Shown: positions 2,807 to 40,380 of the stretch, piece by piece
Position numbering within the stretch: position 1 is the first letter of the stretch
Layout: each line of letters starts with the position of its first letter
Translations under genes and position numbers: made by a program
IMG/VR virus record: IMGVR_UViG_2744054872_000003
Location: 1-40,380 of that record
Origin: a virus
Taxonomy: Duplodnaviria > Heunggongvirae > Uroviricota > Caudoviricetes
DNA length: 40,380 nt
Direction: 5' to 3' (one strand)
The notes under the pieces: generated by a model
What the model saw: only the letters and a program-made list of their open reading frames with translations
Told to the model about the DNA's origin: nothing
Database searches by the model: none

Positions 2807-3209
2807 CGTCTTTTCTCCCCGGAATTAACTCGCGTGGATTATCAGAACGGTGGTAGAGCCAGATGCCAATTCGCACTGCGACAATTGCTGATACGAATGC
2901 GCCAGCAGAGAAAACAATCCCTTTCTCGAAAGAGTCCTTAGTTATAGTAGGGATCAGACTGGCGATACCGATAAGAATTGATGCTGTCGGTTTGTAGAAG
3001 AGAAGGCCGCAAAGGAAACTGAGCATCGACAGGAGAACCCTGCGATTAATGGGATACTCAATGGCAGAGGTAACAAAAATTACCGCACCAGACAAAGCTC
3101 CCAAAGCCACCTCAGGAGGAGCACCTGCTATCACTGCAACAAGAGAACTCATACTAAGCCACTGATTTAAAGATTCACTGGTTAGCTGGACTGACATAAA
3201 AACCACCAT
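2793..3209 (-). CDS. Holin-like membrane protein (first gene of the lysis cassette)
   Basis: Multiple transmembrane segments; GGTGG RBS; promoter-like TTGAAA-N18-TATGAT upstream on the minus strand. Confidence 0.45.
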   Translation of the reverse strand: MVVFMSVQLTSESLNQWLSMSSLVAVIAGAPPEVALGALSGAVIFVTSAIEYPINRRVLLSMLSFLCGLLFYKPTASILIGIASLIPTITKDSFEKGIVFSAGAFVSAIVAVRIGIWLYHRSDNPRELIPGRKDDGNA

Positions 3210-3289
3210 TTACTGTGCATGAATACAACTTTAGTTAGTGCATCCATCATACACAACAAACCATATATGTTTCAAAACCACCACCAAAA

Positions 3290-3304
3290 TTACCCTAAAG
3301 GTAA
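3290..3304. promoter_or_regulatory. Operator-like inverted repeat TTACC-CTAAA-GGTAA upstream of the lysis promoter
   Basis: Perfect match to the recurring TTACC-N5-GGTAA motif; lies just upstream of a -35/-10 pair reading toward the holin gene. Confidence 0.5.
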
Positions 3305-3661
3305 TAAATTAATGTTATGTATTTTAAGGATGTAAAATACTTAATTTATTCGACAGGTACACATCTCTATTATTTTTGATGTAGCGGGTACCCACACTGA
3401 GCATCATATAGTTTTTTTAATTCTGACATGAATATCTTCATGTTTGATTTAGTATGTATCTCCTTATAAGAATTCATGATACAAGACGTTTGCTAACCAG
3501 ACATTTGAAAAATTCATATTGCTTTGAAATATATATTCAAAAAAAGACACCAAAATATATAAATAAATTACACCAGCATACCATAACAATATTTATCTTC
3601 ACATATATTGTATTTCCTACAGTGTTTATGTCCTGGCATTTAATACATAAAATAATTTTAT

Positions 3662-3685
3662 ACGCCCTTCCATGGGCGTTTTTTA
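3662..3685. terminator. Hairpin terminator at the 3' end of the tailspike gene
   Basis: ACGCCC-TTCCAT-GGGCGT stem with a T6 run on the plus strand and an AU-rich tract on the minus strand. Confidence 0.4.
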
Positions 3686-5941
3686 GTTCAATGCAGTCCA
3701 ATCATTACTAGTGAGACCATGAGACTTCCACCATTTACTTGTCCCTGGAAGCCATACCTCTTGACCAATAAATCGAGGTGTCACGTTACCAACAGGAGTG
3801 CTCATTCCGGCACTTGTAACAACATATCCATATTTTGCTGGGCCTGTTCCATTATTAAGGATTGTATCCTTTGTTATGCCTGTTGCCCCATTGTACCATT
3901 CCAAATCACTACCGCTAGCACCGCTAATAAATTCAGGCATAAAGTGTGAAAATGAATTATTGGCATCCACTCTTGCACCATGGTAAGCCTTATAACCGCT
4001 GGCTTGAGTATTGCTCCACCTCCCTCCTTTTACACTACCAGCAGATGAAGAGAAAAATCTTGCCGCATATCTTGCAAAACCGGCTATATTTATATCATTC
4101 AATTCATAATCAGAAAGAGACGCAATTGACATACCATCATTATTAGGAATACCTGATGCTATTTGTGGGTTTGATGCATATCCTGTTAATGTTGCTCCGT
4201 TAATATATATCCCCGTGCTTGGCCCAGTCTCTGATGTGTATATTCCAACTCCAGAACAGTTAAAAACCTGAAGATCTGTTATTCTAACATTTCTGGCACA
4301 ATTAAAGCTCAAGCCACGCTCAGCTGGTGAATAGGTATCGCGCATAGGATATCCGACATCACGCAAGCGAACTCCGTTAATGCTAATGTTGCTAGGATTC
4401 ATACCTTGTGTTACTGACTCAAAACCTTCAAATGTAATGCCATTACCAACATTGACTCCCACTACATTACTGACATGAATATCTGAGACATACCTTTTAA
4501 ATCCGATAACTCCATGGGCACAATTACGACCAACAACGTTGGTGATAATGCAATTACGTGTACCTCCTGGCACCGCTGCAGAACAATAAATTCCCAAATC
4601 CCGACAATTATCTACGAGAAGGCCGTCAATGACGGAATCTATAGCGCTTGCATACATCAGGCATGAATCAGGAGCATTAACAAGTTCAACATTCTTTAGT
4701 GTGCAACGTGCTCCACCAAAGGTAAGGATATCAGCTACAGCATAAAGCTTGTTGTTTTCTTGATTACCATCAATGCGTAAATCACGTATATGAACATCAT
4801 TAGCCCCCATGTTGTGAACAAGGTAGTAGGCCTGTGTTTTATCAACACAAATATCATCCGCAAATTTAAGCCATCCCCCAGCACCGATAAGTATTGTTTT
4901 CTCCTTGATCTGTAATCCAGTAAATATCCATGGATCTCCATCTTTATTCTTTGGAGTAATCTTTATTGCACAATAACCAGGAACAGAACCAGAATAATCA
5001 AGTGCTGCCTGTAGCGTCTGCTGATCTGTCATGCTACCAAACATAAAAGAACGCACATCAATACAGTCATCAACCTGTAATTCCAATTGTAGGCCATCAA
5101 AACGGTCAACAATAACAATACCATCTGCAGTAATACCCGTATTTGGAGTTACTGAGTACTTATTATAACTACCGGCAGAGTTTTTAACCGCCACCAGGCG
5201 ACCTTCAACGGTAGTGTTTGTTGTCAGCTCAGCCTGAGTGTCGAGCTCCATCGCAATGCCACCAATAAGTGAAGCTCCGGTAGGCTTTGCGAGTTCAATC
5301 AGCACATCTGAAGCAGAACCTGAAGGAGGTAAAACAACAATAGGGTTACCGCCGTTGTCGAAAGCTGGAATTTTATTAGCACGGGTAGCGGCATCAGGAA
5401 GTTGCGGTATCTGCTCCTGAACGCGCAACGTATTTCCTAGATTAGTACTGAGCAGTGTATCAACATAATTTTTAGTAGCAGCATCTTGAGGCTTTGAAGG
5501 ATCGCGTAAATTACGGATGTAATTGTTTAGCGCATCATAATAGTTAGCCACGAATGATGGTTTACGCAGCGCCAGGCTAAACCAACTTCTAACCTGCTGA
5601 ATCAACATCGTTAACTTATCAAACGCATCCTCATGCACCTCAGCAAAAAACTTACCCTGATTGCGCAGATCAGTTTCCTGTGTAACCGGTAGCTCTCGTG
5701 ATATAGAAATCTGATAATCGTTAGCCAACGCCTTCGACAGAATTACATTGCCTCCGTTATACCCTCCCGCACCAGTGACTGTGTAATCAGTATCAAGAAC
5801 CAGCACAGTGATATTCTCGTCAAGGTCAATCACCTGCACAACCAGATCAGATTTCTGGAATATCCTGAAGGTATAAGGGAATGTCGTTGTAACACCGTTA
5901 CCGGTGTATTCGTTGTGGTCAACTTCGGTTGAGACCGTCAT
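3683..5941 (-). CDS. Tailspike protein with T7 gp17-like N-terminal attachment domain and beta-helix-type central domain
   Basis: N-terminus YTGNGVTTTFPYTFRIFQKSDLVVQV resembles the conserved podovirus tail-fibre/tailspike N-terminal domain; central region has Asn/Gly/Val-rich repeats typical of a parallel beta-helix depolymerase. Confidence 0.75.
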   Translation of the reverse strand: MTVSTEVDHNEYTGNGVTTTFPYTFRIFQKSDLVVQVIDLDENITVLVLDTDYTVTGAGGYNGGNVILSKALANDYQISISRELPVTQETDLRNQGKFFAEVHEDAFDKLTMLIQQVRSWFSLALRKPSFVANYYDALNNYIRNLRDPSKPQDAATKNYVDTLLSTNLGNTLRVQEQIPQLPDAATRANKIPAFDNGGNPIVVLPPSGSASDVLIELAKPTGASLIGGIAMELDTQAELTTNTTVEGRLVAVKNSAGSYNKYSVTPNTGITADGIVIVDRFDGLQLELQVDDCIDVRSFMFGSMTDQQTLQAALDYSGSVPGYCAIKITPKNKDGDPWIFTGLQIKEKTILIGAGGWLKFADDICVDKTQAYYLVHNMGANDVHIRDLRIDGNQENNKLYAVADILTFGGARCTLKNVELVNAPDSCLMYASAIDSVIDGLLVDNCRDLGIYCSAAVPGGTRNCIITNVVGRNCAHGVIGFKRYVSDIHVSNVVGVNVGNGITFEGFESVTQGMNPSNISINGVRLRDVGYPMRDTYSPAERGLSFNCARNVRITDLQVFNCSGVGIYTSETGPSTGIYINGATLTGYASNPQIASGIPNNDGMSIASLSDYELNDINIAGFARYAARFFSSSAGSVKGGRWSNTQASGYKAYHGARVDANNSFSHFMPEFISGASGSDLEWYNGATGITKDTILNNGTGPAKYGYVVTSAGMSTPVGNVTPRFIGQEVWLPGTSKWWKSHGLTSNDWTALN

Positions 5942-6440: not shown

Positions 6441-6707
6441 ATTTACATCGCACTCCTCTTGTGCCATAGTAATCGGGCACTGGCAAAATCCAGTGCCGGG
6501 ATTGGCGTCCCGAGTTACTACAGAGGCACATATGCCGCATAAGCGGTTTTTTTTATGTGTAAAGCGCACCTATTCTATGGTGGGCTGTGTGGGGGCACCG
6601 AAAGGTGCGCCGGGTCCTTTGTAGCCGGTTACGCCAACCCTGCACAGTTCACCACCAACCGATTGGCGTCGGTAGTGGTGATTAACCTAACTACAAAGGT
6701 GATCACT

Positions 6708-7394
6708 ATGACTGCTAACGTAACCCCATCTGTTTTTCATTTTGAATCAGAAGCAACCATTCGAGCCATTGTTATTGATGGAAATCCTTGGTTTGTTGCC
6801 AAAGACGTTATTAAAGCTCTTCAACTGACAAACCCCACTATGTCAATAAAATCTCTTGATGATGATGAAAGGGCTAAATTTAACTTAGGCCGTCAAGGCG
6901 AAACCAATATTATCAACGAGTCAGGCCTCTACACACTGATCCTCCGCTGCCGCGATGCAGTAACACCAGGCACTATCCCCTACCGCTTTCGCAAATGGGT
7001 TACAGGTGAGGTACTTCCTCAGATCCGCCGCACCGGAAGTTACATTAAAAACTCGCTCCCGCAGGAAGAACGCATAAAGATGGTTGCCGACCAGGTAGCC
7101 AACGCCACGGCGTCAGCAGTGATGCAGGCAATGAAGATAGAGAACAAAACCTACAGTGCCCCACTGAAGCCCGGCTACCGTAGCCTGATTCATTCGCCGT
7201 CTGGTGTTCTCGGCCTGACGGAGAACTCACTGCTGATGAATCTGCTGAACAAGTTACAGGAAGACGGGCACGATGTATCGGGCGCGGCAGCGGAGCTGAC
7301 CACCATGTTCTGCTACATCGTCGGTGTGAGCAAATGCCTGCGTGATATCCAGACGCACGCGGAGTACATCAACGACAAAGCAGGGTTCTTCTGA
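6708..7394 (+). CDS. Antirepressor, Bro-N domain protein
   Basis: N-terminus FHFESEATIRAIVIDGNPWFVAKDV...NESGLYTLILR fits the Bro-N pattern; AAGGTGA RBS before ATG at 6708; the ORF-track extension to 6555 looks non-coding. Confidence 0.7.
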   Translation: MTANVTPSVFHFESEATIRAIVIDGNPWFVAKDVIKALQLTNPTMSIKSLDDDERAKFNLGRQGETNIINESGLYTLILRCRDAVTPGTIPYRFRKWVTGEVLPQIRRTGSYIKNSLPQEERIKMVADQVANATASAVMQAMKIENKTYSAPLKPGYRSLIHSPSGVLGLTENSLLMNLLNKLQEDGHDVSGAAAELTTMFCYIVGVSKCLRDIQTHAEYINDKAGFF

Positions 7395-25313: not shown

Positions 25314-25390
25314 GTGGCATTAGCTCAGTTGGACAGAGCAACCGCCTTCTAAGCGGTTGGTCGCAGGTTCGAATCCTGCATGCCGCGCCA
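25314..25390 (+). tRNA. tRNA-Arg, anticodon TCT (reads AGA)
   Basis: Hand-folded cloverleaf: 7-bp acceptor stem GTGGCAT/ATGCCGC (one G-U), D-arm GCTC...GAGC, anticodon stem ACCGC/GCGGT with loop CTTCTAA, T-arm GCAGG-TTCGAAT-CCTGC, discriminator G, encoded CCA. Confidence 0.85.
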
Positions 25391-34048: not shown

Positions 34049-34111
34049 TCACCCATAAGGTAACAAAAATCAAGGATAGTTACCTATGAGGTGCATTTAC
34101 CTGTTGGGTAA
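34049..34111. promoter_or_regulatory. Tripartite operator region with divergent promoters (OR-like)
   Basis: Three motif copies: TCACC-CATAA-GGTAA (34049..34063), TTACC-TATGA-GGTGC (34080..34094), TTACC-TGTTG-GGTAA (34097..34111); the minus-strand TTGTTA-N17-TATTAT promoter for the cro-like gene overlaps the first. Confidence 0.65.
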
Positions 34112-34166: not shown

Positions 34167-34751
34167 ATGAAAAGTATCCAGGACGTCCGCAGGCAAAATC
34201 TCAACGACTTGATCGACCGTGAATTCAATGGTGTTCAGACGCGGATGGCAGAAAAACTTGGAACTCAGGCAAATCTGGTAAACCGCTGGGCTCTTGGCAA
34301 GAAGGTTATCGGCGACCAGGTTGCGCGAAAAATTGAAGCTGCCGCCAATAAACCCCGTAACTGGCTTGATATCGATCGCTCGCTTTCTCAGGAAGGTTTT
34401 CAGCCTGTCGGCCCAAGCGACATTGGTCAGCTGGCGGCTCACAACCTGGAACGCTGGATGAGCGAAAGCCGCGACCTTTCAACACAGGGAAAACTTCACC
34501 GCGCATCCGGCGTCGCCCAGGTGACAATCAGCCGCCTGTTAAACAATGAGGTCAGCGTTTCCATTTCCACCCTGGAGAATGTTGCATCTGCATTCGGGCG
34601 TCACGGATATGAACTACTGATTCATCCGCATGACCCTGCAACTATCAACTATGACCGCTCGCGCTACGCATTGTTACCTGAAACAGAGAAGGCAAAGATC
34701 GAAAGTTACATTGAATTTGTCATCAACCAGAACGAAAAAAGCAAACAATAA
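34167..34751 (+). CDS. Prophage repressor (cI-like) with HTH domains and no S24 peptidase domain
   Basis: N-terminal XRE-type HTH (MAEKLGTQANLVNRWALGKKVIGDQVARKIE) and a second HTH-like segment; no Ala-Gly/Ser/Lys autocleavage module; sits upstream of the early-left promoter in cI-like orientation. Confidence 0.65.
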   Translation: MKSIQDVRRQNLNDLIDREFNGVQTRMAEKLGTQANLVNRWALGKKVIGDQVARKIEAAANKPRNWLDIDRSLSQEGFQPVGPSDIGQLAAHNLERWMSESRDLSTQGKLHRASGVAQVTISRLLNNEVSVSISTLENVASAFGRHGYELLIHPHDPATINYDRSRYALLPETEKAKIESYIEFVINQNEKSKQ

Positions 34752-34772
34752 AACTATAGTTTTCAGCAAGTA

Positions 34773-34798
34773 AGCCGCCTCATGGCGGCTTTTTTATT
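34773..34798 (+). terminator. Rho-independent terminator after the repressor gene
   Basis: AGCCGCC-TCAT-GGCGGCT hairpin followed by TTTTTATT. Confidence 0.75.
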
Positions 34799-34808
34799 GC
34801 CCTTGCAA

Positions 34809-34885
34809 TTACCTTACGGGTAATTTTTTTAACTCATATCTATTGACACCAAACCAAATACGCATAATCATTACCTCAACGGTAA
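34809..34885 (+). promoter_or_regulatory. Early-left promoter with two flanking operators (pL/OL-like)
   Basis: TTACC-TTACG-GGTAA (34809..34823), -35 TTGACA (34843..34848), -10-like CATAAT/TAATCA, then TTACC-TCAAC-GGTAA (34871..34885). Confidence 0.6.
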
Positions 34886-35059: not shown

Positions 35060-35359
35060 ATGAACGTTAATCAGCAGAAAAATCTTCAAAAAATCATGCT
35101 GGCATTCGACAAGGACTACCGCCTGTCAGAACAGCTATATGACCGACAAGTCGAACTGATTGAGAGTATCCGGCTTCATCAACTGGCCTCAACTTTTGAC
35201 GTTGTAACAGGCAAAGGCGTTCGTCAGGAAGTACTGGAGGCTGCTAAAGACAGCCCTGAGTTCGAAGAACTGATGGATGCCTATCGGCGAGAGGCAATGG
35301 CAATTATCGCCCGCTGGGATCTGGCGGATCAGCTTGATGGACAGAGGGACGCGGCATGA
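35060..35359 (+). CDS. Hypothetical early protein upstream of the recombination genes
   Basis: 99 aa; ATGA overlap with the exonuclease gene; a nuclease-inhibitor role is only a positional guess. Confidence 0.45.
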   Translation: MNVNQQKNLQKIMLAFDKDYRLSEQLYDRQVELIESIRLHQLASTFDVVTGKGVRQEVLEAAKDSPEFEELMDAYRREAMAIIARWDLADQLDGQRDAA

Positions 35360-36177
35360 AACCGGGAATTTATTTCGACATCAGCAACGAAGACTACCAC
35401 GCCGGTGACGGCGTGAGTAAGTCGCAACTGGACATGGTTGCCAAGAATCCGGCGCTTCTTAAATGGGTCCAGGCAGCACCAGAAGACGAAGAGAAAAAGT
35501 CTGCACTGGATATTGGAACCGCATTGCACTGTCTGCTTCTGGAGCCTGGAGAATTCGACAAACGCTTCATTGTTTCACCGAAGTTCGATCGTCGGACGAA
35601 ACAAGGTAAAGCTGACGAAGAAGCATTTCTTCGTGATGTAGCGGATATGGGGATTACGGTACTTGATGCCGAGCAGTGGCGGAAACTGGAGCTGATGCGT
35701 GATAGCGCAATGGCTCACCCGGCGGCACGCTGGATGCTGGAAGCACCTGGTTACTGCGAAGCATCAATGTACTGGAATGATGAAGAGACTGGTGAGTTGT
35801 GCCGCATTCGTCCAGACAAATGGCTGAACGAGCACAACGTGATCGTCGACGTGAAAAAGGTTGCAGATATGGACCGTTTTGCACGCCACATCGAGGAATT
35901 CCGCTACCACGTGCAGGACGCAATGTACCGCGAAGGCGCAATGAGGGTTACTGGTCAGCCGCATGGTTTTTTCTTTCTTGCCGTGAGCGAAAGCATTGAT
36001 TGTGGTCGGTATCCGGTACGCGTGTTCGAGCTGGATGCGCCGGATGTCGATGCCGGGCACGCTCTGTTCCGCCGGGATCTGAATACCTATCACGAATGCC
36101 GCATAAATGATGAATGGGGCGGTGTGGAAATCATTAAACGCCCTGAGTGGGCACGCAAACAGGATATGTACATATGA
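35356..36177 (+). CDS. PD-(D/E)XK-family exonuclease (RecE/YqaJ-like partner of the annealase)
   Basis: RIRPD...VIVDVKKV matches the D-x(n)-(D/E)-x-K core; translationally coupled to the RecT-like gene. Confidence 0.6.
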   Translation: MKPGIYFDISNEDYHAGDGVSKSQLDMVAKNPALLKWVQAAPEDEEKKSALDIGTALHCLLLEPGEFDKRFIVSPKFDRRTKQGKADEEAFLRDVADMGITVLDAEQWRKLELMRDSAMAHPAARWMLEAPGYCEASMYWNDEETGELCRIRPDKWLNEHNVIVDVKKVADMDRFARHIEEFRYHVQDAMYREGAMRVTGQPHGFFFLAVSESIDCGRYPVRVFELDAPDVDAGHALFRRDLNTYHECRINDEWGGVEIIKRPEWARKQDMYI

Positions 36178-37115
36178 GCAACGACATCGCAAACATCAAC
36201 GCACCAGTAGACACAGCAATCGCTGGAACTGCTGCAACTATTTTCAGCCCAGACGGCTTGAACCAACTGATGAAATTCGCCGAGGTAATGGCGCAAAGCC
36301 GCGTAACGGTACCGGCGCACCTCGCCGGGAAACCAGCTGATTGCATGGCCGTGGCAATGCAGGCTGCGCAGTGGGGAATGAACCCGTTTGCCGTGGCTCA
36401 GAAAACCCATGTTGTGAACGGCACGCTAGGTTATGAAGCCCAATTAGTAAACGCAGTTATCTCAACGATGTCGCCAACAAAAGATCGCATCAACTACGAG
36501 TGGTTCGGGCCGTGGGAACGCGTGATCGGTAAGTTTGTTGAGAAAACATCCAAAAACGGCAATCCATATATCGCACCAGGCTGGACTCTAAAAGACGAAG
36601 AAGGCTGCGGTGTTCGCGTATGGGCAACCATGAAGGGCGAGGATCAACCTCGAGTGCTTGAGTTAATGCTGTCTCAAGCACAGGTAAGAAACTCCACACT
36701 TTGGGCCAGTGATCCGAAACAACAACTCGCATACCTTGCGACAAAACGCTGGTCTCGCTTGCACTGTCCTGACGTAATCATGGGCGTCTACACACCAGAC
36801 GAATTACAGGAAACGGCACCGCGCGTTGAGCGAGACATTACTCCGCAAACGACCACTGCTGCGGGAATGAACAGTCTGATCAACGCTAAACCAGTGAAAA
36901 AGCCTGATGAGCAAACTCGTAAAGCGGATAGCCGTGATCCAGAAGAAATGCTGATGGCCTTTACCAGCGCAGCGATGAATTACAGCACTGTCTCCGAACT
37001 GGATAAGGCTTACAAATACATTGCACAAAAACTTTCAGATGATGACGAACTGCTGGCAAAAGCCACCGACGTTTACAGCGTTCGTCGGGAAGAATTAAAC
37101 GAAACATCTATGTAA
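36174..37115 (+). CDS. RecT/Bet-family single-strand annealing protein
   Basis: Central block ...LWASDPKQQLAYLATKRWSRL... resembles the conserved RecT/Bet core; start at ATG 36174 overlapping the exonuclease stop. Confidence 0.6.
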   Translation: MSNDIANINAPVDTAIAGTAATIFSPDGLNQLMKFAEVMAQSRVTVPAHLAGKPADCMAVAMQAAQWGMNPFAVAQKTHVVNGTLGYEAQLVNAVISTMSPTKDRINYEWFGPWERVIGKFVEKTSKNGNPYIAPGWTLKDEEGCGVRVWATMKGEDQPRVLELMLSQAQVRNSTLWASDPKQQLAYLATKRWSRLHCPDVIMGVYTPDELQETAPRVERDITPQTTTAAGMNSLINAKPVKKPDEQTRKADSRDPEEMLMAFTSAAMNYSTVSELDKAYKYIAQKLSDDDELLAKATDVYSVRREELNETSM

Positions 37116-37164
37116 CCACCACCGCGGCGCCACACGCGCCGCACTGCAACCAAGAGAGGTATTT

Positions 37165-37413
37165 ATGAAAGGTGCATTAGGTAAGAAGGAACTCCTGGCG
37201 GTGGTGCCACTGTCATGGAGCACTATCGACCGTATGGAGCGCGCAGGGGAATTTCCTAAACGCTGGTATATCACTGACAAACGCTGCGCATGGAACCGTG
37301 ACGAAGTTGAGCGTTGGCTTGATGAACGTCAGGCAGCAAGCCCGGCAGAGTTCCAGGGTAAAAAACCTCCTGTTCAGCAACGTGTATATCGTCCCGTGAG
37401 CAACGCTGCATGA
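37165..37413 (+). CDS. AlpA-family phage regulatory protein / excisionase-like
   Basis: LSWSTIDRMERAGEFPKRWYITDKRCAWNRDEVERWLDER fits the AlpA/Xis winged-helix pattern. Confidence 0.55.
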   Translation: MKGALGKKELLAVVPLSWSTIDRMERAGEFPKRWYITDKRCAWNRDEVERWLDERQAASPAEFQGKKPPVQQRVYRPVSNAA

Positions 37414-37522
37414 GTGCGCTGCTAAGGCACTGGAGCAAATGGTCAGGATGGTACTTATTCCTGGCCTCTGTTTCAGCATGGCTTTATCTGCTGGCATTAA
37501 TTTTCAGAGAGGGTTGGATTAA

Positions 37523-37822
37523 GTGAGAAAGTTAAGCCGACTTGAAAAATATCACATGAATAAGGTTTCAATGCGCAGTCCGTCAAAGATTGTCGCCGTT
37601 ACTCCTGCGGCGATAGAGATCGAAAAACGCGCGATTGAAAGAGAGAAAAAAGGGCAGTTCCGCATTGCCGCTCACCTTTGGCTTCAGTGTATGGATGTTG
37701 CTTCTGGTGATGTTGAACGTGCAAGGATCGCGGTTCGCAGGGACCAATGTATCACAAAAGGTAACGGCCTTCGCCGTGGCGACTATAGCGGCATAGGATG
37801 TTGTGGGGTGGTTTATGACTAA
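37523..37822 (+). CDS. Small basic regulator-like protein (possibly PerC-like)
   Basis: FRIAAHLWLQCMDV resembles the PerC family only weakly; GTG start with GAGGG RBS assumed, alternative ATG at 37556. Confidence 0.35.
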   Translation: MRKLSRLEKYHMNKVSMRSPSKIVAVTPAAIEIEKRAIEREKKGQFRIAAHLWLQCMDVASGDVERARIAVRRDQCITKGNGLRRGDYSGIGCCGVVYD

Positions 37823-38465
37823 GAAATACACACTAATCTATGCAGATCCACCCTGGGTATACCGGGACAAAGCCGCAGATGGTAATCGCGGTGCCGGTTT
37901 TAAATATCCGGTTATGAGTGTGCTGGATATCTGCCGCCTTCCTGTGTGGGATTTGGCCGATGAAAACTGTCTGTTGGCCATGTGGTGGGTGCCAACACAA
38001 CCACTCGAAGCACTAAAAGTTGTTGAAGCCTGGGGATTCCGTCTGATGACGATGAAGGGCTTCACGTGGATAAAATGTGGTAGTCGACAACCAGATAAAC
38101 TTGTTATGGGTATGGGACACATGACTCGCGCCAATAGTGAAGATTGCCTGTTTGCGGTAAAGGGAAAACTACCTACGCGCATTAATGCAGGGATCGTTCA
38201 GTCATTTACCGCACCGCGGCTTGAGCATTCAAGAAAGCCAGATATCGTTCGTGAAAAACTTGTGCAATTATTAGGCGATGTTTCTCGCATTGAACTGTTC
38301 GCCCGCCAGACGTCTCATGGCTTCGATGTTTGGGGTAATCAGTGCGAAGACCCGGCAGTGCAACTACACCCTGGATACGCGTTGGATATTGGCGGATTAA
38401 CAAATGCATTCAGCAATGCTCCGCTGTCACCAACAGACAACCAGGGACGGGAGCGTGCTGCATGA
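37815..38465 (+). CDS. MT-A70-family DNA N6-adenine methyltransferase
   Basis: Catalytic DPPW motif in [12 protein letters not shown] near the N-terminus; about 216 aa. Confidence 0.8.
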
Positions 38466-39121
38466 ACCTATATCAACGCATCAATGGCGCTGACTGGTGC
38501 AATATCTTCGTCGTCGGCGATCTGCATGGGTGCTACACGCTGCTGATGAACGAACTCGACAAAGTTTCATTCGACCCGGCGCGCGATTTACTTATTTCCG
38601 TTGGTGACCTTGTTGACCGCGGCGCTGAAAACGTCGAATGCCTGGATTTGATTACTATGCCGTGGTTCCGAGCTGTTCGTGGCAACCATGAGCAGATGAT
38701 GCTGGATGCACTGGTCAACGGCGGAAGTTTCGGACATTGGATGTCAAACGGCGGTGGATGGTGGCACCAACTTGATTCTGAGCAGGATGTGCAACTCAAA
38801 TACCTTCTGCCAAAGATTACCAACCTCCCGATGATTATCGAACTAGTTACCGGCAATAAGAAGGTCGTCATCTGTCACGCAGACTACCCGCACAACGAAT
38901 ACGCATTCGATAAGCCAGTACCAGAAGAAATGGTGATATGGAATCGTGAGCGGGTTAGCGACGCGCAGGACGGTATTGTCTCGGAGATAACCGGTGCCGA
39001 TTTGTTCATCTTCGGTCATACGCCAGCACATCACCCACTGGTGTATGCAAACCAGATGTACATCGACACCGGCGCAGTGTTCTGCGGAAATCTGACGCTT
39101 ACCAAAGTCCAGGAAGGATAG
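38462..39121 (+). CDS. Ser/Thr protein phosphatase (PPP-family metallophosphatase, lambda-PPase-like)
   Basis: Motifs GDLHG, GDLVDRG and RGNHE; start at ATG 38462 overlapping the methylase stop. Confidence 0.85.
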
Positions 39122-39123
39122 AA

Positions 39124-40380
39124 TTATTTATTACTGTCTTCCATCCACCTCTCAAACTTCGACGGGGAGAACGGAATCAGATCCGTATGCTCCCCGTTAA
39201 TCCAGGAATCAATCATATCGGCCCACTGCTGCAACATGTAGGCGCGCTGTCTGGCGTATTCCGCTTTGTTATATACGGCGCGCACACCTTTCTGCTCATG
39301 TGCCAGAGCCTTTTCAATCCAGTCTGAAGGATAACCAGCCTCATGCAACAACGTACTTGCTGTACGGCGCATATCGTGTACGGTGAAGTCCTGAATATGC
39401 TCACCATCTTCATTTATTATTTTCACCGTTCTGTCGATCAGAGAGTTCAGCGCGGCATTAGATAATGGCTTCCGGAAATTGTAACGACCAGGAACCAGAT
39501 ATTCACTTCCACCAGCGCACATCTGCAACCCAACCAATATATCCTGTGCCTGTTTAGGCAGGTAAATAACGTGCGCCCGGCTTCCCTTCATGCGGTCTGA
39601 AGGAATTGTCCATGTCCATTTTTTAAAATCTATTTCATCCCACGTTGCATTGGTGAATTCGCCTTTACGAACCATAGTGATAAGCACCAGCTTTAAAGCC
39701 ATTTTCATAGTGCCCATAGCACCAATGGCATCCAGCGTGCGGAAGAACAGGCCAATTTCTTCTGGTGTCAGTGTTCGCTCTCGTGGTTTAAATATGGCGA
39801 TAGACGAAGGTTTAATGTCAGCCGCAGGATTAAACAAACCATGACCACGGTCATTGGCGTGACGGTATACGCTGCTGATGATCTCCCTGGCCTGTACTGC
39901 TGTTGCCCGACCACCGCGTTCGACAATCCGGTCACACAAATCACGAACCATCGATGTGGTAATTTCAGCCATCATTTTGTTGCCAAGAACCGGAAGTATG
40001 TCACGGTCGATCACCGCCTGCTTCATTGCGCGGGTACTGTCAGCCAGGATGACGTGTTTCATATAACTGTCGGTATGTACCGCAAACGTCTCGGCACCAC
40101 GAATCTTTTTGATACCGTCACGTTTAGCCGCAGCCGGTGACTGTCCTGCTTTAAGCAGCTTCTTTGCAGCAATCAGTTCTTCCCGCGCTTCTGCCAGGCT
40201 GATACCGTCACGCCCATACTGCCCGATTACCAGTGTTTCGCGGCGACCGTTGATACGGTAGTCATAGCGAAACGAGACCGTACCTGACGTAAGCACAGCT
40301 ACATACAGCCCGTCACGATCGGAGACTTTGTACAGTTTGTCCTGCGGCTTGAGGTTTTTTAATTTTGTATCGGTAAGCAC
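39124..40380 (-). CDS. Tyrosine integrase, P4-like, 5' end at or beyond the window edge
   Basis: N-terminal arm-binding domain LTDTKLKNLKPQDKLYKVSDRDGLYVAVLTSG; catalytic HDMRRT (HxxR) and C-terminal Tyr in VRAVYNKAEY; the first codon in the window is GTG at the very last bases, so the true start may lie outside. Confidence 0.85.
   Translation of the reverse strand: MLTDTKLKNLKPQDKLYKVSDRDGLYVAVLTSGTVSFRYDYRINGRRETLVIGQYGRDGISLAEAREELIAAKKLLKAGQSPAAAKRDGIKKIRGAETFAVHTDSYMKHVILADSTRAMKQAVIDRDILPVLGNKMMAEITTSMVRDLCDRIVERGGRATAVQAREIISSVYRHANDRGHGLFNPAADIKPSSIAIFKPRERTLTPEEIGLFFRTLDAIGAMGTMKMALKLVLITMVRKGEFTNATWDEIDFKKWTWTIPSDRMKGSRAHVIYLPKQAQDILVGLQMCAGGSEYLVPGRYNFRKPLSNAALNSLIDRTVKIINEDGEHIQDFTVHDMRRTASTLLHEAGYPSDWIEKALAHEQKGVRAVYNKAEYARQRAYMLQQWADMIDSWINGEHTDLIPFSPSKFERWMEDSNK

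Follow-up and report, generated by a model that had tools for sequence, protein, structure and literature searches.

We find that the MT-A70 methylase gene and the lambda-type phosphatase gene standing side by side in this viral DNA are best explained as two independent accessory genes. They close the early-left operon of a temperate podovirus that is phiV10/epsilon15-like, and lie between excisionase and integrase; the methylase likely protects progeny DNA and the phosphatase is a NinI brought in by cassette exchange. We give this reading a probability of about three in four. The window, i.e. the whole analysed stretch of 40,380 nucleotides, carries the two genes as follows.

37815-38465, plus strand: orphan MT-A70 (beta-class, DPPW) N6-adenine methyltransferase, 216 aa (Pfam, PHROG, motifs and fold)
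38462-39121, plus strand: lambda NinI-type PPP-family Ser/Thr(/Tyr) phosphatase, 219 aa (metal-binding motifs intact)

A preliminary description of the same DNA had proposed the pair as a counter-defence module. The gene families, the direct ATGA overlap, the lack of a restriction partner and the position at the operon end all held, while the fixed two-gene module did not. Both ORFs are homology-backed genes under purifying selection and not chance ORFs (dN/dS 0.04-0.06 for the methylase and ~0.15 for the phosphatase); because of this selection, both are probably functional.

The prophage and its early-left operon

The carrying element is a phiV10/epsilon15-like (Uetakevirus) temperate podovirus prophage, integrated beside guaA. 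The sequence is ordinary and already known, being 98.9-99.9% identical to annotated public records (98.9% for phage vB_EcoP_PAS61, 99.9% for E. coli SCEC020022). Many E. coli genomes already have both genes annotated, as 'MT-A70 family methyltransferase' and 'serine/threonine protein phosphatase', and the identical arrangement of the two occurs in 143 complete genomes of this species and in one deposited phage genome (PAS61). Performing an Rfam search over 37000-40380, we found no RNA element, and a repeat search of the same interval returned short, chance-level repeats only. The operon and its surroundings comprise the following features.

34772-34791, plus strand: intrinsic-terminator-like hairpin 3' of the repressor gene (8-bp stem with 6 GC pairs, T run)
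34809-34823 and 34871-34885, plus strand: operator-like palindromes TTACC-N5-GGTAA, flanking the promoter-like site
34843-34871, plus strand: promoter-like site TTGACA-17-AATCAT, putative start of the early-left operon
35356-36177, plus strand: PD-(D/E)XK exonuclease (DUF3799), recombination gene of the operon (E 2.4e-22; PGAP)
36174-37115, plus strand: RecT-family single-strand annealing protein (PF03837, E 2e-44), with the start that PGAP gives in a 99.9% identical genome
37165-37413, plus strand: AlpA-family excisionase/regulator (PF05930; PHROG 66 excisionase, E 2e-16)
37523-37822, plus strand: PerC-family transcriptional activator (PF06069, E 6e-07; PHROG 868, E 5.7e-62)
39124-40380, minus strand: P4-type tyrosine integrase, int (ORF, profile match and PGAP annotation of a near-identical genome)

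The earlier placement of the two genes at the end of an early operon, together with the recombination genes, is borne out by the hairpin, the promoter-like site and the palindromes, and no plus-strand terminator was predicted in the early-left operon before 39121. The phiV10 record annotates a terminator at the position equivalent to the hairpin, which would here shield the early-left operon from transcription of the repressor gene (34167-34751). The window has 14 copies of the palindrome where 0.64 would be expected, and those at 34049 and 34097 stand upstream of the repressor gene. Judging from these sites, the operon looks repressor-controlled.

At the distal end the genes are tightly packed. 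The PerC stop and the methylase start overlap by 8 nt (ATGACTAA); PGAP places the PerC start at 37571. The phosphatase gene is convergent with int across a gap of 2 nt, and no terminator was predicted between them.

An orphan MT-A70 methylase

Matching the methylase, which starts with ATG, against Pfam, we find PF05063 (MT-A70) over the whole profile (positions 1-172 of 172) with 80 bits, the cut-off being 23.9 (E 2.6e-22), and PHROG 359 'DNA methyltransferase' matches it as well (E 3e-120); NCBIfam has no model for it. The DPPW motif occupies residues 11-14 and so precedes the SAM-binding region, as in the permuted order, and the C-terminal ELFAR...WGNQ (~160-177) aligns with MTA1 and METTL3. 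The earlier assignment as a DPPW-type adenine methyltransferase was thus correct. The catalytic core spans about residues 1-177, followed by a clade-specific tail (178-216) that is conserved and predicted to be disordered. The structure model has a moderate mean pLDDT of 65 and supports the core fold and the disordered tail only. Since most members of the family are ~195 aa long and end at WGNQC, and the tail has a pLDDT below 50, the protein appears to have no target-recognition domain (TRD) and is, on the model, a minimal, TRD-less MT-A70 catalytic domain.

We found no restriction endonuclease in the annotation of near-identical prophages or in Pfam scans of the window's unnamed ORFs. The neighbours of the methylase are PerC and the phosphatase, which is not a Type II restriction-modification arrangement, and beyond int the annotated near-identical genome carries guaA, guaB and xseA. 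As neither the prophage nor this flank encodes a nuclease of the restriction-modification type, we regard the methylase as an orphan despite its match to the PADLOC type II DNA methylase model (MTase_II, E 2.7e-77). The absence of a restriction partner, noted before for the window, thus extends to the flank outside it.

A role in anti-restriction is plausible by analogy. Prophage orphan methylases stay off in the lysogenic state and protect once they are expressed, as M.EcoGII shows (PMC5778455). The window's methylase would likewise be off in the lysogen and be produced as soon as induction or infection sets in. If DNA is its substrate, it would modify phage DNA during replication and, incidentally, that of the host, and the likeliest benefit would be that progeny DNA is shielded when the next host has adenine-methylation-sensitive restriction. 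Searching the literature on phiV10, phage MT-A70 and orphan methylases and exo-xis methylases, we found no functional or methylation data for this methylase or its close homologues. We rejected its identity with M.EcoGI/M.EcoGII, which are 349-aa DPPY enzymes, and with M.EcoGIX, a plasmid-borne single-strand-specific methylase.

Alternatively, the methylase could be mainly a developmental or epigenetic regulator that tunes lysis-lysogeny, replication or packaging by marks on phage or host DNA, in line with other genes of the exo/xis-int interval. Its company agrees with such a role: in two unrelated phage groups it adjoins genes of the lambda Orf63 type, which shift the balance between lysis and lysogeny, a PerC-family activator precedes it with overlapping reading frames, and some relatives have it paired with a DndB/ParB-like DNA-binding protein. 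However, the epsilon15 match spans the AlpA-PerC part only and the methylase gene is absent from epsilon15 itself, so it is dispensable for the phage life cycle. Moreover, an enzyme that has no recognition domain would be of low specificity and fits site-specific regulation poorly. We consider the regulator role unlikely and favour the protection of progeny DNA.

A lambda-type phosphatase in an exchangeable slot

The phosphatase matches PF00149 (E 1.4e-15) and PHROG 246 'NinI-like serine-threonine phosphatase' (E 8.6e-108). Aligned with lambda PPase (1G5B), it is identical at 145/217 positions (67%) without gaps over residues 1-217 (E 9e-100), with GDLHG at residue 19, GDLVDRG at 48 and GNHE at 74, and it keeps D20, H22, D49, R53, N75, H76, H139 and H186. 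The lambda-PPase likeness that had been noticed from the letters alone is therefore confirmed, with all metal ligands kept. By this alignment the protein is a full-length orthologue of lambda NinI (ORF221), and the identical active site suggests a Mn-dependent phosphoprotein phosphatase, which would dephosphorylate a protein in vivo. It does not stand in the nin-region order (ninH - ninI - Q); it lies between the methylase and the convergent int. In lambda, ninI is non-essential (PMC10695390). An upstream start at GTG 38342 was rejected; that stretch evolves in the methylase frame, whose third codon positions take 15-20 of 25-29 differences.

A non-protein substrate, i.e. nucleotide signals such as Ap4A or 2',3'-cyclic phosphates, seems quite improbable. 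Phosphodiesterase and 2',3'-cyclic phosphodiesterase activities have been reported for lambda PPase in vitro, and among sequence relatives ApaH-type Ap4A hydrolases and the polynucleotide kinase-phosphatase (its phosphatase domain) rank next after lambda PPase. The ApaH likeness, however, is limited to the N-terminal metal-binding motifs (residues 14-82), and lambda PPase, whose active site is identical here, is a biochemically established phosphoprotein phosphatase.

The junction with the methylase and the break points of homology define the slot that the phosphatase gene occupies.

38462-38465, plus strand: ATGA start/stop overlap of methylase and phosphatase, left junction of the cassette (sequence)
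38467-39141, no strand: exchangeable cassette relative to phiV10 (homology break points)

Homology to phiV10 ends just after ATGAA and restarts within the last int codons; in between, phiV10 has a DUF1382/Orf63 gene instead. Checking the slot after the methylase in the 80 nearest IMG/VR methylase loci, we found DUF1382/Orf63 in 55, the phosphatase in 19 and another gene in 6. Among ~537 E. coli genomes carrying this methylase allele, the phosphatase adjoins it in 143; in about three quarters of the carriers Orf63/DUF1382 or another cassette takes its place. A third cassette, found in few relatives, consists of an 82-aa ORF and a gene for an AntA-domain protein. DUF1382, which is lambda Orf63 (PMC10869804), also stands 3' of an 83%-identical methylase in Stx2a phages. 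The phosphatase is thus one of several interchangeable cargo genes and not a fixed partner of the methylase. The ATGA overlap, described before for this pair, is present in 53/53 IMG/VR loci that have both genes, and every alternative cassette is joined at the same ATGA; because of this, the overlap is no evidence of a methylase-phosphatase partnership. The overlap, which would provide translational coupling, is a property of the slot, and the NinI orthologue, normally of the lambdoid nin region, would have replaced the usual Orf63-like gene exactly at this junction.

The two genes have separate histories, as judged from their divergence. A near-identical phosphatase (dS 0.08) adjoins methylase alleles whose synonymous sites are saturated (dS >2); between locus L130 and the window, the phosphatase dS is 0.084 and that of the adjacent methylase is about 3.3. 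No methylase accompanies 27/80 of the phosphatase loci in IMG/VR. The ~80%-identical phosphatases have NinB...NinI...NinG/Q surroundings, and no methylase lies less than 4 kb away; a nin context is seen for phosphatase relatives at ~80% and at 65-68% identity. By these comparisons the nearest outside relatives are those of lambdoid nin regions, and the phosphatase belongs to a cassette of the lambdoid nin-region type that has been mobile recently.

These results bear on the idea of a functional counter-defence module, with the methylase acting against restriction and the co-translated phosphatase against kinase-based abortive-infection signalling. The ATGA coupling, the place of the pair within the early operon and the purifying selection on both genes had spoken for it. 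The adjacency also persists beside diverged methylase alleles, 81-83% identical in loci L130, L132 and L136 and 52% in L137, and both families share nin regions in some lambdoid phages (1.7-2.3 kb apart in 16/50 nin-region loci of the MT-A70 sister clade). Some selective association of the methylase with the phosphatase may thus exist. But the slot census, the phosphatase loci without a methylase and the discordant dS show that the pair is not inherited together, and the same ATGA serves each alternative cassette. Running PADLOC, we obtained no defence-system match for the phosphatase, PerC, DUF1382 or the third cassette, and in the literature we found no E. coli kinase-based defence linked to the phosphatase. 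The anti-defence phage phosphatases aRES/NARP1-AP are Macro-domain ADPR-1''-phosphate phosphatases of an unrelated fold, not PPP enzymes. We therefore see a two-gene module as very unlikely, and the earlier suggestion that the phosphatase reverses a kinase-based defence found no backing.

It would be a long shot to read the methylase-int interval of phiV10-like prophages as a dedicated exchange site for early host-takeover or counter-defence effectors, with a lambda-type phosphatase that has a real anti-defence or host-reprogramming target. Such a site would take up unrelated cassettes at one ATGA junction, namely Orf63, the PPase, the 82-aa ORF with AntA and the upstream DndB-like gene, with their translation coupled to that of the methylase. 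If so, near-isogenic phosphatase and Orf63 variants would make the phosphatase target findable, and the old question of lambda PPase function in vivo could be addressed.

Under our preferred reading of two independent accessory genes little changes, as both are routinely annotated. A useful by-product is that the module idea is corrected and the usual partner of the methylase turns out to be a lambda Orf63 homologue. Near-identical prophages differing only in this cassette also offer a natural experiment, which bears on the role of lambda PPase in vivo and on the target of the TRD-less MT-A70 clade.

Comparison with known systems

The closest counterparts of the methylase are phiV10 gp33 'DNA methyltransferase' (YP_512288), the PAS61 gene and WP_000163459.1, with proteins 98-100% identical to it; in phiV10, PAS61 and E. 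coli the gene has the same place (after PerC, before int) and the same overlaps. In PAS61 and in the 143 E. coli genomes named above, the phosphatase follows as well, whereas phiV10 has DUF1382/Orf63 in the next slot.

The phosphatase shares the GDxHG, GDxVDRG and GNHE motifs and every metal and catalytic residue with lambda NinI/ORF221 (PDB 1G5B). Lambda NinI, however, is a gene of the delayed-early nin region, where ninH and Q flank it, whereas the window copy is the last early-left gene. E. coli PrpA and PrpB (pphA/pphB) belong to the same PPP subfamily (NCBIfam E 3e-79 and 9e-66), but with 266 and 222 bits the phosphatase does not reach the respective equivalog cut-offs of 326 and 332 bits, so it is not an orthologue of either.

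The methylase has the fold, the DPPW and the ELFxR...GNQ of ciliate MTA1/AMT1 (DNA 6mA) and human METTL3. The sequence match to MTA1 has an E of 4e-13, and Foldseek against MTA1/METTL3 gives an E of 5e-9 with a TM of ~0.55 at an identity of only 20-24%. These eukaryotic enzymes are heterodimers, with an inactive paralogue and DNA- or RNA-binding partners, whereas the 216-aa methylase stands alone, and we found no such partner gene in the window. That it is an RNA m6A methylase is barely credible: some records read 'N6-adenosine-specific RNA methylase IME4' and METTL3 is among the closest solved folds, but the IME4 label is a COG name inherited from eukaryotes, the ciliate DNA methylase MTA1 gives the best match by sequence and by fold, and the PADLOC match is to a DNA methylase model.

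M.EcoGII and M.EcoGI are alike in concept, being prophage-borne, non-specific beta-class orphan adenine methylases that stay silent in lysogens and, once expressed, can block many restriction enzymes (PMC5778455). They differ in belonging to another branch, with 349 aa, DPPY and a central recognition domain, so that the homology holds at the class level only. That the window's methylase is non-specific, too, would be a guess.

The exo-xis genes of lambda and Stx phages (Orf60a, Orf63, Orf61, Orf73, Ea22) occupy a similar place, in the distal part of a pL-type operon near xis/int. Neither a methylase nor a phosphatase belongs to the described exo-xis set. Like the window locus, the exo-xis region has one conserved and one variable part, and the usual neighbour of the methylase, the Orf63 (DUF1382) homologue, is shared with it.

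Prophage context and the early-left operon

The window, oriented as a prophage, is a temperate podovirus of the genus Uetakevirus and resembles phiV10 and epsilon15. Over the 2.1 kb round the methylase/phosphatase pair, identity is 98.9% with Escherichia phage vB_EcoP_PAS61 and 99.9% with the chromosome of E. coli SCEC020022, where guaA adjoins the integrase gene. The ORF coordinates and ATGA coupling in the preliminary description proved exact in every detail.

Features of the early-left region and its right flank
34167-34751, repressor gene, with a strong terminator-like hairpin downstream (34772-34791)
34843-34871, promoter-like site TTGACA-17-AATCAT, after the hairpin
37523-37822, + strand, PerC-family ORF immediately 5′ of the methylase, its end reaching 8 nt into the methylase gene
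37815-38465, + strand, methylase, 216-aa ORF, N-terminus [14 protein letters not shown]
38462-38465, + strand, ATGA overlap common to methylase and phosphatase
38462-39121, + strand, phosphatase, 219-aa ORF
39124-40380, − strand, integrase gene, convergent with the phosphatase gene across a gap of 2 nt

From the promoter-like site to 39121, every gene lies on the + strand, mostly overlapping, in the order two small ORFs, PD-(D/E)XK exonuclease, RecT, AlpA-type excisionase, small membrane ORF, PerC, methylase and phosphatase. Since no + strand terminator is predicted in this interval, it is a sound inference that the pair ends the early operon and would be expressed with the recombination genes, as had been proposed. 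The phosphatase and integrase stops lie on opposite strands 2 nt apart (39119-39126), with no terminator between the two genes. Early-left transcripts should therefore continue into int in antisense, and int transcripts should likewise cross the phosphatase and methylase genes in antisense. The PerC-family activator ORF also has a weak ANR-family match; PerC/Pch homologues activate the LEE virulence genes of EPEC and EHEC.

The palindrome TTACC-N5-GGTAA brackets the promoter-like site (copies at 34809 and 34871) and also occurs upstream of the repressor gene (34049 and 34097), a layout resembling lambda OL/OR. Allowing at most 1 mismatch, we found 14 such sites in the window against 0.64 expected, a number reached in none of 100 shuffles; four of the 14 flank the repressor gene, two upstream and two round the early-left promoter-like site. 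The sites look like an operator set spread over the genome and recall the way in which C1 operators are dispersed in phage P1.

Positions of the 15-nt TTACC-N5-GGTAA sites
3290, 6046, 6426, 7467, 24977, 28086, 28104
31704, 31766, 33712, 34049, 34097, 34809, 34871

Elsewhere, tandem Rfam matches to isrK (74 bits) and to C4 antisense RNA (79.5 bits) lie at 6477-6659 (+). They immediately precede a Bro-N antirepressor-like ORF (6555-7394, +) and extend over its start. Together these elements make up an antisense-controlled antirepressor module of the P1/P7 immI type within a Uetakevirus prophage. The end opposite int carries a glycine-zipper/TraT-like lipoprotein (109-627) and a DUF5384 protein (643-1182), likely cargo for lysogenic conversion or exclusion. 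Between the portal and terminase genes is a tRNA-Arg(TCT), at 25314-25390.

The methylase

The assignment of the methylase to its family stands: it covers the whole Pfam MT-A70 profile (80 bits) and also matches PHROG 359 'DNA methyltransferase' (E 3e-120) and a PADLOC model for type II methylases (E 2.7e-77). Among solved proteins it is nearest to MTA1, a DNA 6mA methylase of ciliates (E 4e-13), and to METTL3; the AlphaFold model also matches these two folds (Foldseek E 5e-9, TM ~0.55; mean pLDDT 65, core 70-86, residues 165-216 below 50). The gene is under purifying selection (dN/dS 0.04-0.06). Among 2,556 family matches in Enterobacterales, the majority are ~195 aa and end just past the conserved WGNQC, leaving no separate target-recognition domain.

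The window's allele continues into a 39-aa, clade-specific C-terminal tail (residues 178-216, window 38346-38465; [36 protein letters not shown]), predicted to be disordered; homologues in Stx phages and nin regions lack it. The tail's protein sequence is conserved even beside the methylase body of the relative L137, which is only 52-58% identical. Against relatives ~20% diverged in DNA, 15-20 of 25-29 substitutions fall at third codon positions of the methylase frame. On this pattern the tail is real coding sequence, and the same bias fixes the phosphatase start at ATG 38462.

The claim of no visible restriction partner was borne out. No restriction endonuclease appears in the annotation of near-identical public prophages, in Pfam scans of the window's unnamed ORFs or beside int, and the methylase is an orphan. 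Some relatives, such as E. coli CRKP-1 (locus L166, 3934-5001) and Salmonella phage SPN1S (locus L165, 2009-3004), have a gene inserted immediately 5′ of the methylase, again overlapping by ATGA. It encodes a DndB/DGQHR-domain protein (331-355 aa; PF14072 E 3e-46; TIGR03187 E 1e-56) that is absent from the window and could be a DNA-binding partner for the TRD-less methylase.

We propose that the enzyme is an N6-adenine DNA methylase of low specificity that stands alone, probably as a dimer, and would be turned on with the early genes and then mark replicating phage DNA. A regulatory role is a live alternative because of the neighbours, namely PerC, Orf63 and, in some relatives, the DndB/ParB-like protein.

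The phosphatase and the exchangeable slot

The phosphatase was also correctly described as lambda-PPase-like. It aligns with lambda PPase (1G5B) without gaps (E 9e-100; 145/217 residues identical), conserves all metal/catalytic residues, matches PHROG 246 'NinI-like' (E 8.6e-108) and does not reach the equivalog cut-offs that NCBIfam sets for PrpA and PrpB, the host enzymes. With dN/dS ~0.15, it is under purifying selection. By homology, it is an orthologue of lambda PPase/NinI and almost certainly an active lambda-type enzyme; lambda ninI is non-essential (PMC10695390).

In phiV10, the methylase is followed instead by a 64-aa DUF1382 protein, likewise ATGA-overlapped. Here the window and phiV10 are near-identical up to ATGAA and then unrelated until the final few codons of int, which places the phosphatase on a ~675-bp cassette (38467 to ~39141). 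The last int codons are exchanged along with it: ...MEDSNK beside the phosphatase and ...MAGE in the AntA-cassette locus L017, the type found with non-phosphatase cassettes. In the 80 IMG/VR loci with the closest methylases (identity 98% or more throughout), the slot held DUF1382 in 55, the phosphatase in 19 and neither in 6. Four of these 6 carry a 1.27-kb insert that encodes an AntA-domain protein as well as an 82-aa ORF, which again starts at the ATGA. In Stx2a phages, a different phage group, DUF1382 likewise comes after a methylase of 83% identity. The slot is a swap site, with DUF1382, the pro-lytic lambda Orf63 of the exo-xis region (PMC10869804), as the methylase's usual partner. Among 5,426 complete E. 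coli genomes, 537 carry the window's methylase allele; its phosphatase allele, at 95% identity or more, is found in 146 records, and 143 genomes have the pair.

That the two genes form a functional counter-defence module, as the preliminary description proposed, is not supported. Adjacency is retained in the diverged relatives L130, L132, L136 and L137, the last with a methylase body only 52% identical, which speaks for some association. However, most carriers lack the phosphatase, and the two genes of L130 have discordant histories: measured against the window, phosphatase dS is 0.084 while that of the abutting methylase is ~3.3, saturated; a near-identical cassette has therefore landed beside anciently diverged methylase alleles. 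The phosphatase stems from a nin-type background: outside the slot, its nearest relatives (78-81% identity) are found in nin-type contexts of lambdoid phages (NinB...NinI...NinG/Q; canonical ninH-ninI-Q in HK446) with no MT-A70 gene within 4 kb. Our literature search found no link between PPP phosphatases and counter-defence; the 'phage phosphatases' recently credited with an anti-defence role are enzymes of the Macro-domain type.

In lambdoid phages of the HK97/HK446 type (L168-L187, IMG/VR lambdoid contigs, ~3001-5900 in locus coordinates), a methylase sister clade (196 aa, ~70% identity) immediately follows ninB. Of 50 such nin-region loci, 16 have NinI a further 1.7-2.3 kb downstream, which may speak for some association; both families therefore also share nin regions, without adjacency.

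The simplest reading is that methylase and phosphatase are both cargo genes common among temperate enterobacterial phages and assort independently. The arrangement is ordinary, since public records of phages and of E. coli already contain and annotate it. For the methylase, the closest functional analogy is M.EcoGII, a prophage orphan that is silent in the lysogen and gives broad protection against restriction when expressed (PMC5778455); M.EcoGII belongs to a different branch, with 349 aa and a DPPY motif.
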